From IMG/VR virus record IMGVR_UViG_3300047311_000444, positions 1 to 57,458 of that record: 57,458 bases of DNA. One strand, 5' to 3'. Each line of letters begins with the position of its first letter. Positions within the stretch are counted from its first letter, which is position 1. The DNA comes from a virus. Lineage: Duplodnaviria; Caudoviricetes. Position numbers and translations under genes: made by a program. Positions 783 through 57,458 of the stretch are shown here, in pieces. The notes under the pieces are model-generated. The model did not search any database, had not been told where the DNA came from, and worked only from the letters and a program-made list of their open reading frames with translations.

Positions 783-906
783 TGGCATCACAATGCTTAT
801 TATGTTTCAATCGGGCTTGCTCCTTTCGTAAGTGACTCCTAAGCATGCTTTTGCGCTGGTCTGGACCGTCACCGCGGGCCCAGGGCGGCACCCCCCGCGC
901 GGCGTG
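780..906. repeat. 127-bp exact repeat of window end (57332-57458)
   Basis: Direct comparison; identity stops at 779/57331. Confidence 0.97.
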
Positions 907-948
907 CCCGATCGTATATGACGCCCCCTCTTTTATCGGCAGTGCATT

Positions 949-1266
949 TTACAGCATTCTCTTGGGATTCAACCACTTAATGAACTGCCTTGCTGGACGG
1001 TGAAACCACAGTGCTTCGGGCATCTCGATCGGGACCCCGGCGATGTCGGCTCGGAAGTCGATCATTGCGCGCCAAACTTCGATTGGCATCCACTTGGGCT
1101 TCAACGGTTCAAGGCTCTCGTAGCAGACGTGTCCTATCCAGGCGTCGTCAGTTGGTGCCCAGTCTTTGAGAATCTCGCGATCGAAGTGCGGGGTTTGGTC
1201 GAGGAGGAAGTTGATGTACTCCGAGCAGTCGGGCTCCTCTTTCCTGCGTAAGTTGGGCTCTTTCAC
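949..1266 (-). CDS. Small protein containing a copy of the major capsid protein N-terminal segment
   Basis: FLLDQTPHFDREILKDWAPTDDAWIGHV vs MCP FLFDQSPHFDKDILKDWFPTDDAWIGHV; start uncertain (GTG 1266; ORF open to 1425). Confidence 0.65.
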   Translation of the reverse strand: MKEPNLRRKEEPDCSEYINFLLDQTPHFDREILKDWAPTDDAWIGHVCYESLEPLKPKWMPIEVWRAMIDFRADIAGVPIEMPEALWFHRPARQFIKWLNPKRML

Positions 1267-1302
1267 GTGAGTTACGTCGATTCCTGCAACCGTGTCCGGA
1301 TT

Positions 1303-1323
1303 TGTCCGGGACATGTCCGGGAC
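1303..1323 (-). repeat. Inverted exact 21-bp copy of the putative origin iteron pair at 8472-8492
   Basis: Reverse complement GTCCCGGACATGTCCCGGACA equals 8472-8492. Confidence 0.85.
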
Positions 1324-1329
1324 ATCCTC

Positions 1330-2145
1330 GTAGGTGGAGTTATACCCACGCGCGTTATAGATGCCGTGACAGGAGAGGGCCTTTCGGCGGGCTCCTGCTC
1401 CGCGCCCCATGGTGTTTACTGCCATGGGTGGGCGGACTGTCGGGTTTGACTATTGGTCGCGGCGCTGCGGGGACAGGCGTAAGGACAGCGGTAAATGCCG
1501 TCGACGCGGACCTCTTCGGACTTTGTTGTCGCAGGCCCATGCCCCCCTGCTCGGGGACGGCACGTTGACACATGGCTTGGGCTCAATCAGCGGCCCTACT
1601 GTGACCATGCGTTGGTTATCTGCGTCTGCACTGCTTCGTGCGGATAGCGGGGAAAGGGGTTGTTGTACTCGAGGATGAGCCTGAGCCCTGGTTGTGCTTT
1701 TAGGGGATACCCAGAGCGGCCCTCCCACCTGCGGGCAATTGAAGCGCCAACCGCACCGTGTACGCTCGAAGTGTGCGCCGGGATGGGTAGCTATTTCACT
1801 ACGGGTCCGCAGCGGAAAACGAGTCGATTGGTACCGTGGAGGCGCTTCAAATTGGCGGCACCCCTGATCGGCAGTCTCAGCACACGGGGACTGTCCAGGA
1901 GCCCCGTTCGTTTTGGACACGTGCTTAGCCGGGGATGCCAGAAGATCAGCAAGGGTCCCGCCGAACTGACGGACCAGGACGGGCATAAAACAGGACCCCC
2001 GTTCGGTTCCTCCGACGCCGGGGGTCCTGCCGCCAATGAACCGATCCGCTGCTGGATTCGTGGAAGGGAAGGCTCCAGCGGGCCTTGCGTCTGGTTTCCA
2101 CCCCAGATCAAACCGGCGCACGACCACCATAGTAATGCGCCGATC
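1330..2145 (-). ncRNA. Candidate large structured non-coding RNA (~815 nt)
   Basis: No convincing ORF; more than 12 nested helices, a GAAA tetraloop, a pseudoknot, G-U pairs mostly favouring the minus strand. Confidence 0.6.
1986..2029 (-). terminator. Possible intrinsic terminator (or one helix of the candidate ncRNA)
   Basis: 11-bp perfect stem 1991-2001/2019-2029 followed by only UUUUA on the minus strand. Confidence 0.35.
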
Positions 2146-2317
2146 ACACAGCCAACGAACAGGGATACACTCCTGATTTGCTGCGTGAAAAGGAAGCGCC
2201 GCGCGTTGTTGAAATCTTGGAACGATTTGCCCACCTTGAGCGACGCGCGGCGAAAATGTTACTGTCTGTTCCAGATTCAACGTGGCACTTGTCGCACACG
2301 TGCTCCGGGGTTGTCAA
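2144..2317 (-). CDS. Small hypothetical protein (CxxC)
   Basis: TTGA start/stop overlap with the upstream gene. Confidence 0.35.
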   Translation of the reverse strand: MTTPEHVCDKCHVESGTDSNIFAARRSRWANRSKISTTRGASFSRSKSGVYPCSLAV

Positions 2318-2532
2318 GTGGTTTTCGGCGGGACCTTGGAAAATCTCCGATCCAGGTCCTCCACGGTGATCGTCCGCTGGCGGCGCTTCCAGCCCTTCGA
2401 GTGCCGAAAATGCCAGTCGTTTCCGGGGTCTGGAACTTCCTTCTCCTGCCACGCAACAGTGACTTTGTTCTCGAAGGATGCGGAGCCCCTGATAATACGA
2501 TACCAGCGGACGATGCGGACGAGCTTGCTCAT
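2314..2532 (-). CDS. Hypothetical basic protein
   Basis: MSKLVRIV start 1 nt after the upstream stop. Confidence 0.55.
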   Translation of the reverse strand: MSKLVRIVRWYRIIRGSASFENKVTVAWQEKEVPDPGNDWHFRHSKGWKRRQRTITVEDLDRRFSKVPPKTT

Positions 2533-2533
2533 G

Positions 2534-2851
2534 TCATCGGCGCGGGTATCCCGGCTCACCGATCGGAGCAGTCGGAGCGGGCGGGACGAAATCCTGAGAG
2601 GGCGGCGCGGAGCCGACGCGGGCGCGTGGCTCGCGTAGTCCCGGCTCACTGGCGATGCAAGGTCCGTCGTCACGCTTCAGGCCCGGGTTGACGGCGCTGG
2701 CGAGAAACGACTTTTCGAGCGCTTGCGGGTTTTCCATGTAGCGGCGCAGCGCGTCCAGCAGATATTCCCGGCTCTCGAACACGACGGTTTGACAGCCCAC
2801 GTGACAGACGAATCCGTTCAACACGGGGATGATTTTTATTTCTCGGGTCAT
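2534..2851 (-). CDS. Hypothetical protein
   Basis: ATGA-coupled start MTREIKIIPVLNGFVCHVGCQ. Confidence 0.7.
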   Translation of the reverse strand: MTREIKIIPVLNGFVCHVGCQTVVFESREYLLDALRRYMENPQALEKSFLASAVNPGLKRDDGPCIASEPGLREPRARVGSAPPSQDFVPPAPTAPIGEPGYPRR

Positions 2852-3345
2852 GGGTCCTTTGGTTGTGGTTTTCCGAACAGATCGAAATAACTCTCGGGCG
2901 GACAAAGCTCATGCTGCGGGACCCAGAAGGCGGGGCGATTCTTGGCGTATGGAGAGCCCCAAAGCTCCGGTCGCTTCCCGTCGCGGGCGTACGTCCAACC
3001 CTTGATCACATACGTTCCGTTTTTCCCGCAGACCAGCCAAAAGATTCGGTCGTCAGGATCGGACGGGTGCAGGCGCAGAGCGTAATCATCCTTCGGTGCG
3101 GTGCGGCAATCCATGTCGCCCACGTCGGGACCCCGGAAAATGCCCTTGCCATTCCACGGCAGGCCCAGGAACTTCGACAGCGCCATTTCCCCCAGGATTC
3201 CCTCAATGTGAATTTGCCAGTCGTTGAGAGATTCATCACCGTGGGCGGGCTTGCGGTTCAGTTTGAGGTTCTCAATCTGCCGCGCGATACCCGCTAAGGC
3301 GCAAAGCTCGATCTCTTCGATGGGTAGGACGACGCGCTTGTTCAT
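2848..3345 (-). CDS. Phage hypothetical protein, possible PD-(D/E)XK-like fold
   Basis: EGILGEMAL...PDVG..DCRT pattern; ATGA coupling. Confidence 0.6.
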   Translation of the reverse strand: MNKRVVLPIEEIELCALAGIARQIENLKLNRKPAHGDESLNDWQIHIEGILGEMALSKFLGLPWNGKGIFRGPDVGDMDCRTAPKDDYALRLHPSDPDDRIFWLVCGKNGTYVIKGWTYARDGKRPELWGSPYAKNRPAFWVPQHELCPPESYFDLFGKPQPKDP

Positions 3346-3791
3346 TTCAATAGTGTTACATTGGGCCAACCGGCGTGTTTGTAAAGAGCCGACGCAATCA
3401 CGTCATACCACGCGACTCTTGCCACTCGTCGCACAGACGATTCAATAGCATCGACCAGGATTGATTTTCCCTGCCCGTTCGGGGGCATGTGTGCGCGATT
3501 GTTATCCGGAAAAAAGAGCACAATCAGGGTCCTTTCAACGGCGTCGAGTTGGTCCGGGGCGCAGGGAATAATAACCGCCCGATTCCACTTCATGTGATGG
3601 TGTGCGGTGACTCTGGAAATCACGTTCACCGATTGGCCGACATACACAAACTCAAACACTCCGGTATCTGCAAAATCCACCAGCACGTAAACTCCACAGA
3701 TGCGATCAACTCGCTTGATGACTGACGTAGTCCCGATGTCGACAACAGCGGGCAGGCTGAAGGGTAACGGAGATTCTTGGCGGACGCTCAT
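3342..3791 (-). CDS. GIY-YIG nuclease family protein
   Basis: GVYVL...YVGQS..VISRV..H...E..LI...P.NN motifs. Confidence 0.8.
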   Translation of the reverse strand: MSVRQESPLPFSLPAVVDIGTTSVIKRVDRICGVYVLVDFADTGVFEFVYVGQSVNVISRVTAHHHMKWNRAVIIPCAPDQLDAVERTLIVLFFPDNNRAHMPPNGQGKSILVDAIESSVRRVARVAWYDVIASALYKHAGWPNVTLLK

Positions 3792-7817: not shown

Positions 7818-8008
7818 CAACAATTTTAGTGAACAACTGGGAACAAGTTTCCATTGACCCCATAGACAACGCATGAGATAACCGGCATGCGACGTTCACA
7901 AATGACGCCACACTTTTTCAACTACACCCTCGGAAACTCGGGTTTTACCGTTCGTCAGAGCGGGATTGTCCCTCGTCGCGCCGGGGGTGTAGTTGAAGGA
8001 GCCTGGTG

Positions 8009-8779
8009 ATGTTCGCCAAAGTTTTTGAGCAGATTCTTGATTCGTCGATAGCTTCCGACTGGCAAATCCGGCACGTATTCGAAGACTTCCTGAAGCTCGC
8101 CAGAAAGGTGGGCTCGGACTGGATCGTCGATATGACGCCGGACAGCATCTCTCGGCGAACCGGGGTCCCGCTGGACATTGTTGAGCGGGCGATCGCAAAC
8201 CTCGAAAGCCCAGACACGCAGAGCCGGACTCCAGATCACGACGGACGCAGGCTTATTCGCCTGGATGAACATCGGTCCTGGGGCTGGATTATCGTCAACT
8301 ACCAAAAATACAGGGAGATCGCTTCCAAGGAGATGGTTCGCATGTCGGAGGCTGAGCGGAAGAAGGAATACCGCAGCCGATCGACTCCCCTCTCCCCCTT
8401 TCCCCCTGTACCCCCTAACCCTTGTACCCCTGTACAGAGTACAGATACAGAAGCAGAGCGGTCCCGTGTTGGTCCCGGACATGTCCCGGACAGACCCTCA
8501 CTGAACAACATGGTTGAATACGGGAAGACCATAGGTCTATCTGTAACAGAATCAACGAAGTGCTTCGATTATTACCAGTCAAACGGCTGGAAGGTAGGAA
8601 GAAACCCGATGAAGGACTGGAAAGCCTCAATTCGTAACTGGTCCCGCAACGTCAATGCAACCACTCAAAAACATAATCCCCCGCGTTATGACAGAAATGC
8701 CACGACCGTCAACGACCCCGACAAGTGGGCAGCAGCCCGAGCCGCCAAAGAGGGAAGAGAAAACCTTCCAGGACTTTAA
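8009..8779 (+). CDS. Phage replication initiator (replisome organiser)
   Basis: MFAKVF..ILDSSI, wHTH, GW.IVNYQKYR; C-terminal FDYYQSNGWKVGRNPMKDWKASIRNW; followed by loader and DnaB. Confidence 0.8.
   Translation: MFAKVFEQILDSSIASDWQIRHVFEDFLKLARKVGSDWIVDMTPDSISRRTGVPLDIVERAIANLESPDTQSRTPDHDGRRLIRLDEHRSWGWIIVNYQKYREIASKEMVRMSEAERKKEYRSRSTPLSPFPPVPPNPCTPVQSTDTEAERSRVGPGHVPDRPSLNNMVEYGKTIGLSVTESTKCFDYYQSNGWKVGRNPMKDWKASIRNWSRNVNATTQKHNPPRYDRNATTVNDPDKWAAARAAKEGRENLPGL
8395..8495 (+). promoter_or_regulatory. Putative replication origin inside the initiator gene
   Basis: Tandem GTCCCGGACA repeats plus CCCCTGTA and TACAGA repeats in the linker, as in lambda O-type genes. Confidence 0.55.
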
Positions 8780-54821: not shown

Positions 54822-55361
54822 TTAAGGTGCTCGCCGCTCGCCGCGCATAAACGCGCGCCACTGTTCAGCCGCAAGTTGAGTCTTGAAGCGTGCGTACTCT
54901 ACAGCAACCGCGTCCCGTCCAACTCCACAAAGCGCTCGCCACGGATACTCAGGGCAAGCCGGGTCGCTTTCAATCACGATAGTTGGCAGAACATATCCGG
55001 GGTGTCTGTAGACTTCGCGACCGTCGACAAGCAATCGCACAATGCAGTCGCACAGGATTGCCGGACCCCCGGACGATTGTTTAGACTTCAGGAGCAAGAG
55101 GACTTTGACCGGACCCGTAGACCTGCCCAGGTATCCGGCAACGTCATTCTCTTCAAGCCAATCTTTCCCGGTAGTGGCATCGCCCAGGAACAAGCGCACG
55201 TACGCTTTACTGGCAAAGGCCGCTTCGAGCGCTTGAACTACAGGGCGCGGCGTTGTGTCGTGGTAGTACGTTCCGGACGGTTCGCGAACATCGCGGAACT
55301 TGACGCCGGTTGGACCCGTCCATTCGTGGACAGCCGGACCTTGTGTCGTTGCATTGCTCAT
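54822..55361 (-). CDS. Phage early hypothetical protein
   Basis: VRLFLGD..TGKDWLEE.DV.GYLGRSTG...SSGG.AIL. Confidence 0.7.
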   Translation of the reverse strand: MSNATTQGPAVHEWTGPTGVKFRDVREPSGTYYHDTTPRPVVQALEAAFASKAYVRLFLGDATTGKDWLEENDVAGYLGRSTGPVKVLLLLKSKQSSGGPAILCDCIVRLLVDGREVYRHPGYVLPTIVIESDPACPEYPWRALCGVGRDAVAVEYARFKTQLAAEQWRAFMRGERRAP

Positions 55362-55447
55362 TGTCGTTTGTCGCTTTTGTTATTGGTTCAGTCTGGGCTT
55401 TTGCCCAGCGCTGGCGCCGCGACCTGGGGCCACGGCGCCGCCGCTGT

Positions 55448-55729
55448 TCAAATGCGGTGCGCCGCTTCGAATTGTTTACGTGCCGTGCTCCACCGCACCC
55501 CGGCTTTGCGCGCGTCCCGTTTCGCCTGTGCAAGCTTCTGCCCATGCCACAGGGCGGCCATGCGGTAAAGGTCCGAAAGGGCCACAACGTACCGCGTGCG
55601 CTTGCCTTTCAGCCGCAGTCCGATGAGCGCTTCAGACTGCGAACCTGCTGGCGCAATGGTTATGAGCACCGCGCGAGACCCGATACGCTTCGCGGTCTCA
55701 CGTGTGACGGGCTTTTCCAGTTTCGTCAT
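55448..55729 (-). CDS. Basic hypothetical protein
   Basis: MTKLEKPVTRE...IGLRLKG.R. Confidence 0.65.
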   Translation of the reverse strand: MTKLEKPVTRETAKRIGSRAVLITIAPAGSQSEALIGLRLKGKRTRYVVALSDLYRMAALWHGQKLAQAKRDARKAGVRWSTARKQFEAAHRI

Positions 55730-55935
55730 ACCCCCTTCTCTTTTTCCGCTTCAATGAAAGCCCAGCCGCGCGGCGCCGCTGCGGTCTCGCACTCCGCTTT
55801 CAATATCTCAAGCAAGACTTCGCAGTCGTTGAGTGAGTCGACGGGGTCTCTGTTGGCGGTCTCTGCCAGCGCTCGCTTAAGCCAGAATGAAGCGGCTGGG
55901 CATTGCATGACACGTGCGCGCGTTGTCTTACTCAT
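55726..55935 (-). CDS. Hypothetical protein
   Basis: SFWLKRAL....RDPVD..ND.E.L; ATGA coupling. Confidence 0.65.
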   Translation of the reverse strand: MSKTTRARVMQCPAASFWLKRALAETANRDPVDSLNDCEVLLEILKAECETAAAPRGWAFIEAEKEKGV

Positions 55936-56159
55936 TGGCCCCTCGCTTTCATCCCGTTCAGAAACCAGCGGTTGCCAAGCAAGAGACCGTGCCGCCCATG
56001 CGTGCCGATAATCACGCCCAAGGCGTACCGTTGCCCGCACAGTGCGGGGATAACGGCGCACAGAAACCAATTGTGCCGATTGCAGAACAATCCCGCCGTG
56101 GCGAGCAGCGGGCCAAAGTTTTTGTTAAGGTTTCTCATAAGCTCAAAAGCAGTGAACAA
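55932..56159 (-). CDS. Hypothetical protein
   Basis: Fills the gap; start uncertain. Confidence 0.4.
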   Translation of the reverse strand: MFTAFELMRNLNKNFGPLLATAGLFCNRHNWFLCAVIPALCGQRYALGVIIGTHGRHGLLLGNRWFLNGMKARGQ

Positions 56160-56418
56160 AACCCTGTGAGTCTTCGCGCAAGTTCAAGGTGCGTTTCTTG
56201 CCCAGCCAGCGGAGCAATTCGGATTTGAAAGCGATGTCCGGATCCGTGGTATTGAATGCGAAGCGGAAAGTGAACACTTCGCCATTGTCTCTGTCCGCCA
56301 TACCTTCGAGCGCAAGCCCCCAAAAGTAGGGAGCGAAAACGGGCTCACCCTCAAACTTCCCCGGCTGTGTGATCCGCTCGCCATTGTTCTGGTAGTCGCA
56401 TTGTGGGGTGTTGCTCAT
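56143..56418 (-). CDS. Hypothetical protein
   Basis: PGKFEGEP...YFW...EDSQGFV. Confidence 0.65.
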   Translation of the reverse strand: MSNTPQCDYQNNGERITQPGKFEGEPVFAPYFWGLALEGMADRDNGEVFTFRFAFNTTDPDIAFKSELLRWLGKKRTLNLREDSQGFVHCF

Positions 56419-56651
56419 TGTGCCCCTCCTTCCATGCCGAACGTATTCAGAGTGTGTAAGTGATCACTGGCGCACTGGGGCTTTGAGAGCTTTTGCACAG
56501 TGGAATTGCCTTTGCTGTCATAGGTGACGCGCACAAGGGTGAATTTGCCATGTGCAACGTTGTGCCCAAGGGAGGAATCCCCAGTGCGGGCTTTCAATCG
56601 CTTCATAGCAGAGACCAAGTCCGCAAGCGTCAGTTTGTCGTTTGTCTTCAT
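56415..56651 (-). CDS. First early protein (MKTNDKL...)
   Basis: A-rich leader GACAAACGACAATG. Confidence 0.6.
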   Translation of the reverse strand: MKTNDKLTLADLVSAMKRLKARTGDSSLGHNVAHGKFTLVRVTYDSKGNSTVQKLSKPQCASDHLHTLNTFGMEGGAQ

Positions 56652-56782
56652 TGTCGTTTGTCTGTTCGTTTGTTGTTATACCGTAGGCTGTCAACATACA
56701 GGAGAGCAATCCACAGCACAATCCGCAGTAGTACGGACGAAAGGGCTTGCCCTAGGCGAAGAGTCTGGGGTATGGAAAGGGC

Positions 56783-57334
56783 ATGATCACAGCAGCCGAA
56801 AGCCCCCCGCCAGCACCCCCCAGGATTATCCGTAGGCGCCCCACGGCAGAGACAAAGCGCAAGCTCCGGACAGACTTTGTGCAAGGTCGCGGTTCAATGA
56901 CAAGTCTGGGGCTCAAATACGGGGTCTCTCTCACCAGCGTTAAGGCATGGGCTAAGCGGGAAAAATGGAGCGAGCTTAAAACGGCGTTCAGTGAGCGAGC
57001 GCTTGAGAACACAGTCCTGCCAGTACCAGAACAGCCCGCAAGCTTGCCAGTACTCTCGCCACAGCAAACCCGAATTGCCAGAGTCGAAAGAGAGCTTGAA
57101 CGGTTGGAGCTTGCCATGGACAAGGCCCATGCGGAAGACGGCACGTGCAACGCGCAAACCGTTCGCGATGTAAGTGCCGCGCACTCAAGACTTTTCGACG
57201 TATGGTGCACCCTCACAGGAACGCCGCGACCTGGGGTCCGGAAGACTGTGAAACCGGGTCGCTCGCTCGCTCCTATCATTGCGCCTACTGAGTCGACAGC
57301 GCAAGCGGTTGAACCTCAGAAGCTTGGCGATTAA
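56783..57334 (+). CDS. Terminase small subunit-like HTH protein (allele B)
   Basis: FVQGRGSMTSLGLKYGVS..SVKAWAKREKW HTH; C-terminus AHS.LFD.WC.LTGTPRPGVRK shared with 261-782. Confidence 0.6.
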   Translation: MITAAESPPPAPPRIIRRRPTAETKRKLRTDFVQGRGSMTSLGLKYGVSLTSVKAWAKREKWSELKTAFSERALENTVLPVPEQPASLPVLSPQQTRIARVERELERLELAMDKAHAEDGTCNAQTVRDVSAAHSRLFDVWCTLTGTPRPGVRKTVKPGRSLAPIIAPTESTAQAVEPQKLGD

Positions 57335-57458
57335 TGGCATCACAATGCTTATTATGTTTCAATCGGGCTTGCTCCTTTCGTAAGTGACTCCTAAGCATGC
57401 TTTTGCGCTGGTCTGGACCGTCACCGCGGGCCCAGGGCGGCACCCCCCGCGCGGCGTG
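57332..57458. repeat. 127-bp exact repeat of 780-906
   Basis: Direct comparison. Confidence 0.97.

Follow-up and report, generated by a model that had tools for sequence, protein, structure and literature searches.

Location and coding content of the interval

The window analysed here is the whole IMG/VR virus genome record IMGVR_UViG_3300047311_000444 (57,458 bp), which represents a soil phage with a completeness estimate of 96%. The subject is a gap between two genes (positions 1426–2313) together with its lower border; a preliminary description had proposed that 1330–2145 encodes one giant ornate non-coding RNA with a pseudoknot. The region is the downstream end of a minus-strand series of small overlapping genes and is read here on the minus strand, which also carries every flanking gene. 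The gap is preceded by ORF173 (2848–3369), ORF105 (2537–2851) and ORF73 (2314–2535; 2317–2535 without the stop codon TGA at 2316–2314) and is followed by ORF158 (949–1425). ORF73 is the last clearly coding gene upstream of the gap, with support from its position-specific base composition (chi-square p 0.007) and a positive synonymous-codon score.

The gap was described as lacking a credible gene, and the composition of the sequence agrees with this view. Positional base periodicity (position-specific G+C content) is flat from ~1341 to 2240 and strong in the flanks. A log-odds score of codon usage, with 15 long genes as the training set, finds no signal in any of the six frames over 1321–2340; positive values are limited to the ORF158 frame (961 to ~1320) and the upstream gene frames (from ~2340), and the score is zero or negative between them. 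The interval also matches no Rfam family, in line with the description, which could not assign it to a known class by eye. The whole window gives no Rfam match at the gathering score among 4227 families, which include GOLLD and ROOL, and no Rfam match to group I or II introns, RNase P or transfer-messenger RNA (tmRNA). A permissive Rfam search (E up to 10) yields four chance-level matches over 800–2900 (E 1–7.6; 12.7–21.6 bits) and a single chance-level match over 1975–2320 (E 1.3). ARAGORN detects no transfer RNA (tRNA) or tmRNA gene in the window.

Distribution of folding energy

The interval was said to be packed with complementary pairs, and the listed helices exist. Helices 1370–1375/1392–1397, 1406–1412/1422–1428, 1884–1889/1902–1907 and 1892–1897/1914–1919 can be read directly in the sequence, helices 1739–1748/1841–1850 and 1991–2001/2019–2029 were recovered independently by an inverted-repeat analysis, and helices 2051–2056/2074–2079 and 2114–2120/2136–2142 were recovered independently by a complement search. 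Three others (1495–1502/1556–1563, 1579–1586/1681–1688 and 1857–1864/1932–1939) each form seven of eight Watson–Crick pairs, and the single mismatch of each is a C·A on the plus strand that becomes a G·U on the minus strand, consistent with the earlier remark on minus-strand G–U pairing. The density of the pairs is nonetheless ordinary. Perfect stems of at least 7 bp within 130 nt number 8, versus 5.3–6.0 in shuffled sequences, and at least eight such stems occur in 21 of 100 plus-strand and 23 of 100 minus-strand shuffles. The 11-bp stem is the only unusual perfect stem (1 of 100 shuffles). Allowing G–U pairs yields a mild minus-strand excess of stems (30 versus 19.6; 4 of 100 shuffles) and no plus-strand excess (51 of 100 shuffles).

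The interval 1330–2145 folds with a z-score of −2.88 on the minus strand and −3.42 on the plus strand (70 shuffles), and the gap 1426–2313 with −4.12 and −3.10, respectively (20 shuffles). This excess is located at the two ends of the interval, because the core is comparable to shuffled sequence and the end blocks are not. The 560-nt core (1426–1985) has z-scores of −0.74 (minus) and −0.20 (plus), and 23 and 42 of 100 shuffles, respectively, fold as well. A segment within the core (1680–1940), when folded alone, reproduces the two domains of the preliminary description at a z-score of −1.15, with 31 of 200 shuffles as stable. At the upper end, 1980–2262 reaches −2.79 on the minus strand (1 of 200 shuffles) and −4.33 on the plus strand (0 of 200), and at the lower end, 1285–1440 reaches −3.47 (0 of 200 shuffles as stable). 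The flanking coding sequence lies between ~0 and +2 in 200-nt windows.

Hairpin block between T1 and T2

The upper end of the gap (minus strand, 2313–1984) begins with a hypervariable patch (2226–2305), defined by alignment to a related IMG/VR contig (L003), and continues into a series of hairpins. The first hairpin, T1 (2197–2252), combines a 10-bp G+C stem (2252–2243/2206–2197) with a variable 36-nt top and is followed by CUUCCUUUUC. T1 is an inverted repeat (I1) that is found in both the minimum free energy (MFE) and consensus folds; its stem is that of an intrinsic terminator, and its U run is interrupted (CTTCCTTTTC). The 5′ arm of T1 is unchanged within the diverged patch. L003 reads this arm in another frame, which indicates that the arm is conserved at the nucleic-acid level.

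Four smaller hairpins follow T1, and the single-sequence and consensus folds concur on all of them. H2 (2144–2188) has a 9-bp base (2188–2180/2152–2144), and H3 (2113–2143; stem 2142–2135/2121–2114) holds an ATG (2130) in its top. H4 (2090–2107; stem 2107–2103/2094–2090) presents residues 2101–2096 in its loop. H5 (2046–2081) pairs 2079–2074 with 2056–2051 and has an alternative register, 2081–2076/2051–2046. The H4 loop residues are a perfect 6-bp complement to residues 2065–2060 in the H5 loop, and the resulting helix (2060–2101) crosses the H5 helix 2051–2056/2074–2079 as a putative kissing loop or H-type pseudoknot.

The block is closed by T2 (1984–2030), which consists of an 11–12-bp perfect G+C stem with an inner 4-bp helix and is immediately followed by UUUUAU, the arrangement of an intrinsic terminator. 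Of the 44 sites in the genome that combine a hairpin with a T run, T2 (2029–1991; −28.2 kcal/mol) is the most stable, and this inverted repeat (I3) is identical in both relatives of the phage. T runs follow T1 and T2 on the minus strand only. Three helices of the preliminary description, 1991–2001/2019–2029, 2051–2056/2074–2079 and 2112–2121/2135–2144, fall within this structure. T2 itself (2029–1991 with UUUUAU) conflicts with the uninterrupted transcript that was envisaged, in that it would cut the proposed RNA ~120 nt from its minus-strand 5′ end.

Paired substitutions in the hairpin block

The covariation data derive from two relatives that are 93–99% identical to the window and one Logan contig, the contigs of four sequencing runs having been examined. 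L003 carries substitutions at 2050, 2053 and 2077, and one contig from sequencing run X24 carries the same substitutions together with changes at 2062 and 2099. Positions 2053 and 2077 change together and preserve the H5 helix 2051–2056/2074–2079, and positions 2050 and 2077 change together and preserve the alternative register 2046–2051/2076–2081. On the X24 contig, the 2062:2099 pair is converted from G–C to C–G, by which the crossing helix 2060–2065/2096–2101 is retained. Each of the two crossing helices accordingly carries a compensatory change, as observed in one or two haplotypes. All five changes of the X24 haplotype within 2050–2099 fall into compensatory pairs, and the probability that at least two such pairs arise among five random changes is 1.5e-5 to 1.6e-4. 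Six sites vary in 1986–2225, of which five are in compensatory pairs and the sixth, the L003 substitution at 2153, is in the bulge of H2. RNAalifold counts one compensatory pair in H5. The compensatory pairs are confined to 2046–2101, and none is seen in the core among the two relatives. The paired substitutions thus provide good evidence, at the level of sequence comparison, that complementarity in 2046–2101 has been maintained.

Relatives and mosaic structure of the core

The region is carried by only two IMG/VR contigs, one of which is 99% identical over its reach. The other, L003, is a mosaic. Immediately after the ORF73 stop codon, L003 is diverged over 2305–2226, with internal 1-nt indels and an equal net length; by reading, the patch is approximately two-thirds identical to the window, and its flanks are 98–99% identical. 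Six differences are found over 2225–1939, residues 1938–1680 are absent (net 258 nt, or 86 codons), and 1679–1289 is 99% identical. L003 matches blocks 1289–1679 and 1939–2225 at 98–99% identity, which equals or exceeds that of the flanking genes. The homology ends right after tandem 11-mers at 1303–1324, at which point L003 enters a different gene equipped with its own ribosome-binding site.

The core (1450–1983) is open in the frame shared by ORF73 and ORF158 up to the stop codon TAG at 1452–1450. The L003-absent segment (1680–1938) contains both domains that had been singled out, the 10-bp-helix domain (1739–1850) and the pseudoknot domain (1857–1939), and a relative as close as 93–99% identity therefore dispenses with them; 33 MFE pairs span the borders of the segment. 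The proposed pseudoknot (1884–1889/1902–1907 with 1892–1897/1914–1919) holds up as two 6-bp complements. As a conserved structure it fares poorly, with its absence from L003, a diverged sequence in variant P0011 and the z-score of −1.15. In P0011, a frame-shifted diverged patch lies inside the L003-absent segment at one copy of an 18-nt direct repeat.

This direct repeat (1896–1913 and 1991–2008; 16 of 18 positions identical) reproduces the 3′ half of T2 within the indel segment, and it is a nucleotide-level repeat because its copies lie in different reading frames. An origin of the indel segment by tandem duplication was rejected, the 18-nt repeat being the only sequence in common. The template of a diversity-generating retroelement was likewise rejected, since the window contains a single copy only and the variable patch shows no preference for changes at adenines. 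On the plus strand, a hairpin at 1640–1697 (−19.2 kcal/mol) is followed by TTTT, and its 3′ part lies within the L003-absent segment.

Two further open frames in the interval were rejected as genes. ORF 1791–2234 (147 aa, with a hydrophobic stretch) has no database match; of the 11 substitution sites counted for ORF 1450–2280 (see below), 1 is synonymous in the 1791–2234 frame, the others are non-synonymous and mostly radical, and L003 has an in-frame stop at the deletion junction. In the plus-strand ORF 1660–2691, substitutions fall at codon position 1, and no family match is found.

Near-identical DNA occurs in 24 listed sequencing runs from soil and rhizosphere, all of DNA. More distant homologues of the region were not recovered in the collections searched. 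A blastn comparison with 50,697 phage records gave no match, IMG/VR scans with the gap ORF as a degenerate probe and with the T2 pattern returned the two known relatives and nothing further, and two metagenome scans (with the gap ORF and with ORF158) gave no homologue. One Caulobacter match from a GTDB genome scan was rejected as a chance seed match that is antisense to a real gene and has no nhmmer match. In the full records of four phages that share the iteron described below, and of L008, which has an ORF173 homologue, the iteron is the sole match (four of the five records). Distant phages with a 51%-identical ORF173 homologue have densely packed small genes downstream of it, without an nhmmer match to the region.

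Lower block, iteron and exchangeable cargo gene

The lower end of the interval contains three minus-strand hairpins within 1329–1436, located upstream of the iterons and 99% identical in L003: 1436–1399, which encloses two ATGs, 1398–1369, which is GAAA-tipped, and 1365–1329. They are followed by an iteron or operator cluster (1293–1324) that comprises two full 11-bp units, TGTCCGGGACA, and a degenerate third. The exact 11-mer is found at 1303–1313, 1314–1324 and 8482–8492, and a copy with one mismatch is found at 8471–8481; the 21-mer thus recurs at 8471–8492, at the head of the plus-strand replication module. Tandem short units with ~11-bp phasing that recur at a control region are the hallmarks of iterons.

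A 20-mer, GTCCGGGACATGTCCGGGAC, is present in four otherwise unrelated IMG/VR phages, in arrays of GGGACAT/TGTCC with 10–11-bp phasing. These arrays are located at 8380–8510 in the window, 820–980 in L016, 10190–10350 in L017, 860–960 in L018 and 490–650 in L020. The L018 array is ~570 nt from a DnaB-type helicase gene, and the L016 and L017 arrays adjoin a homologue of the window ORF 8006–8380 (38–39% identity). From their sequences, the phased arrays probably represent a shared origin or operator system. In the window, the neighbour of the replication-module iteron, ORF 8006–8776, has no Pfam match.

The iteron copy number varies, as shown by variant P0020, which is the exact product expected from one added 11-nt unit at the iteron site (three copies inferred). 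In P0020, the 46 'N-terminal' codons of ORF158 are out of frame with the ORF158 core. This frame shift suggests that 1290–1425 is a leader rather than coding sequence. The ORF158 core (949–1290, minus strand) is the cargo gene; its codon signal is restricted to the part noted above, and two other genes replace it in relatives. At one junction across relatives, the iteron is followed by any of three unrelated genes (types P0012, P0003 and P0004), with P0003 and P0004 as alternative C-terminal parts after the iteron. In these sequences, the iteron junction marks a gene-exchange hotspot. The exchange is at odds with the ORF as a fixed part of the one cassette of RNA, iteron and ORF that had been suggested. 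ORF 949–1425 was also labelled a capsid mimic; it has no match in Pfam, PHROG, PADLOC or the PDB, and this label finds no support in family or structure.

Neighbouring genes and other features of the window

A single minus-strand frame (2535–949) contains ORF73, ORF158 and the gap's open frame, with only TGA 2316–2314 and TAG 1452–1450 between them. No sign of stop-codon recoding is found elsewhere in the genome. ORF73 has near-identical homologues only, and both ORF73 and ORF158 are confined to this phage lineage. L003 lacks window residues 2524–2822 (299 nt), by which the first ten codons of ORF105 are fused in frame to ORF73 (P0001, 79 aa). Both relatives have ~340 bp extra between ORF173 and ORF105 (at window 2871/2868; residues 5499–5838 in L003 and 5475–5814 in L004), and this stretch appears to encode a small cysteine-rich protein.

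Among 10 large proteins of the phage, four have PHROG matches: a DnaB-type helicase, an exonuclease, an ATPase-like protein and a family of unknown function. The two ends of the record (117–906 and 56638–57458) are diverged direct copies with 88–91% identity that span a DUF1804-like gene. They look like the result of a circular or permuted genome assembled over two strain variants and not like a true terminal repeat. A second long stretch with weak three-base periodicity (54976–57150; 450-nt windows) may contain short genes in differing frames or further non-coding sequence.

Interpretation of the interval

The interval is interpreted as a composite end-of-operon region with a modest structured element and not as a giant ornate RNA (probability roughly 0.5). 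The energies and paired substitutions support a structured part that is limited to a hairpin block of ~200–300 bases ending in a very strong terminator-like hairpin. The first part of the composite (2313–1984), which comprises the variable patch, T1, H2–H5 with the crossing helix, and T2, would be the untranslated tail of the upstream accessory-gene operon. The T1–T2 block (~200–270 nt) would be under selection for its nucleic-acid structure and would most likely function as an RNA with its 3′ end at T2. As a structured 3′ untranslated region (3′-UTR) or attenuator, the block may set the share of transcription that stops at T2 versus reading on, and it could be released as a 3′-end small RNA. 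The second part (1983–1450) is ~530 nt of sequence without excess structure, is partly dispensable and may be a spacer or a young atypical ORF. In the third part (1440–1290), three hairpins and two to three iteron copies precede the exchangeable cargo gene, and the iterons probably place this gene under an iteron-binding protein.

Several observations weigh against this interpretation. The covariation comes from two haplotypes, L003 and one depth-5 Logan contig. The supported pairs are all Watson–Crick and are thus compatible with either strand or with DNA, and template switching during DNA replication can produce paired changes in short inverted repeats without selection on RNA. The plus strand of the T1–T2 block folds equally well, with a better z-score, and G–U counts in this block select neither strand. 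Without T1 and T2, the inner hairpins have a minus-strand z-score of −1.55 (17 of 200 shuffles), and 1940–2313 folded alone pairs residues 2053 and 2077 differently. On the minus strand, the natural changes do not clearly disturb the fold less than random ones (fraction 0.087 by MFE and 0.175 by reference-structure energy), and this result depends on the fold. A consensus scan of 800–3000 identified no sigma-70-like promoter, and none of the 24 listed runs with near-identical DNA is an RNA run. Moreover, the open frame extends through the T1–T2 block as well as the core.

This open frame raises the somewhat unlikely alternative that the minus-strand ORF 1450–2130 (or 1450–2280) is a genuine gene of atypical character, an orphan encoding an arginine- and proline-rich, probably disordered protein, with the hairpins, including T2, inside or beside its mRNA. 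Over 1426–2313, the frame contains one stop in 296 codons, with 287 stop-free codons, a run length reached in 0.5% of 2000 dinucleotide shuffles (P 0.005), and the codon-aligned antisense frame is also stop-depleted. The L003 deletion keeps the frame, and the frame-shifted patch of P0011 returns to it. Annotation pipelines call the frame in relatives as six variants of 225–226 aa and one of 197 aa, and no truncated form was found. Substitutions in ORF 1450–2280 fall at codon position 3 in 7 of 11 sites and are synonymous in 6 of 11, when the sites next to indel junctions (2225–2222, 1938, 1676 and 1674) and site 1419 outside the ORF are excluded; the corresponding position-3 counts are 19 of 25 in ORF173, 4 of 5 in ORF73 and 4 of 11 in ORF105. 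All five minus-strand A-to-C changes are at position 3. A codon pattern is therefore weakly apparent in the single stop, the in-frame indels and the position-3 bias, but four of the seven position-3 sites (2050, 2053, 2062 and 2077) are also accounted for by RNA pairing, and the pairing partner 2099 is a non-synonymous W-to-S change. Three-base periodicity is absent (chi-square 8.3 per 828 nt versus 35.8–121 in 24 of 24 trusted phage genes), and the synonymous-codon score, which is positive in all 24 genes, is −0.059. The amino-acid composition (R 12.3%, P 11.2%, C 3.3% and Y 0.4%) is that of a random translation of G+C-rich sequence. No homologue outside the lineage is found among 1.84 billion representatives, no match to the gap ORF is found in Pfam, PHROG or PADLOC, and its ESM Atlas model has a pLDDT of 0.26 and a pTM of 0.13. 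T2 would occupy approximately codons 34–49 of the form starting at ATG 2130, and two genomes use different frames across the conserved T1 arm.

The hairpins could instead act as DNA, as single-strand initiation or primosome-loading signals or as other replication or packaging structures, with paired changes that stem from DNA hairpin maintenance or template switching. The Watson–Crick nature of the supported pairs on both strands and the plus-strand folding, which is at least as good, suit this quite unlikely explanation, as do the recurrence of the iteron (1293–1324) at the replication-module control region and in arrays of other phages, one of them near a DnaB-type gene, and the variable copy number of the 11-bp unit. 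However, the T1–T2 block is ~700 nt from the iterons, the T runs after both large hairpins on the gene strand fit transcription terminators, and there is no A+T-rich unwinding region nearby (G+C 0.60 over 1001–3000). Least probable, and very unlikely, is the large ornate non-coding RNA of a new class (~800–1000 nt) that would fill the whole gap and have losable peripheral domains. The non-coding composition, the lack of an Rfam family and an upper end whose structure shows paired substitutions remain from the preliminary description, and they are joined by the better-than-shuffled folding of the whole gap (1426–2313 and 1330–2145), the mild minus-strand enrichment of G–U-containing stems and the high identity of blocks 1289–1679 and 1939–2225 to L003. 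A single 815-nt RNA, in contrast, is disfavoured by the ordinary folding of the core and of the segment with the pseudoknot and 10-bp helix, by the absence of this segment, whose borders MFE pairs cross, from a close relative, and by a strong terminator-like hairpin with a U run inside the proposed molecule; neither GOLLD, ROOL nor another Rfam family matches it, and its homologues in the collections searched are limited to two near-identical contigs.

In the composite reading, the element of interest is the terminator-proximal block, where paired substitutions found in natural soil populations preserve the pairings, among them a crossing helix. The block occupies a junction that is prone to recombination and at which accessory genes are exchanged behind an iteron; if it gates read-through, it would control a phage cargo ('moron') gene at the RNA level. 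The core offers a clean test case for annotation, as a long open frame and a pipeline-called protein with zero codon periodicity. As first proposed, the giant ornate RNA would have been a notable discovery, and the evidence for it is insufficient.

Comparison with known systems

GOLLD and ROOL are large ornate RNAs that are represented by Rfam families (PMC12286853). The interval resembles them in its location in a phage genome and in its gap of several hundred bases without coding signal, and it differs from them in lacking a covariance-model match, excess folding in the core and tRNA genes in the window and in being restricted to one narrow lineage.

T1 and T2 resemble tandem intrinsic (Rho-independent) terminators in the perfect G+C stem and UUUUAU of T2, in the 10-bp G+C stem and U-rich run of T1, and in that both hairpins lie beyond the last clear gene, on the strand of that gene. 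They depart from such terminators in the variable 36-nt top and interrupted U run of T1 and in the ~165 nt between T1 and T2, which is made up of small conserved hairpins and a crossing helix that a simple tandem arrangement would not require.

The cluster at 1293–1324 shares with the replication-control iterons of phages and plasmids its 11-bp tandem units, helical phasing and longer arrays in other phages. It departs from them in its location, 7 kb from the replication module and before an exchangeable accessory gene.

Riboswitch leaders differ from the hairpin block in that the block has no aptamer-family match, no convincing antiterminator alternative by eye and a distribution in one lineage only. 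It is unlikely that ~2190–1985 (H2–H5, the crossing helix and T2) constitutes a new class of pseudoknotted cis-acting phage RNA, which would either sense a ligand or protein as an attenuator or serve as a self-acting antiterminator, and would decide T2 read-through into the downstream stretch and the cargo gene. Like riboswitch or attenuator leaders and 3′-UTR-derived small RNAs, the block places a pseudoknot-capable domain directly upstream of a strong terminator hairpin, and as in attenuator leaders, an ATG (1986–1984) follows the U run of T2 and the open frame continues beyond it.

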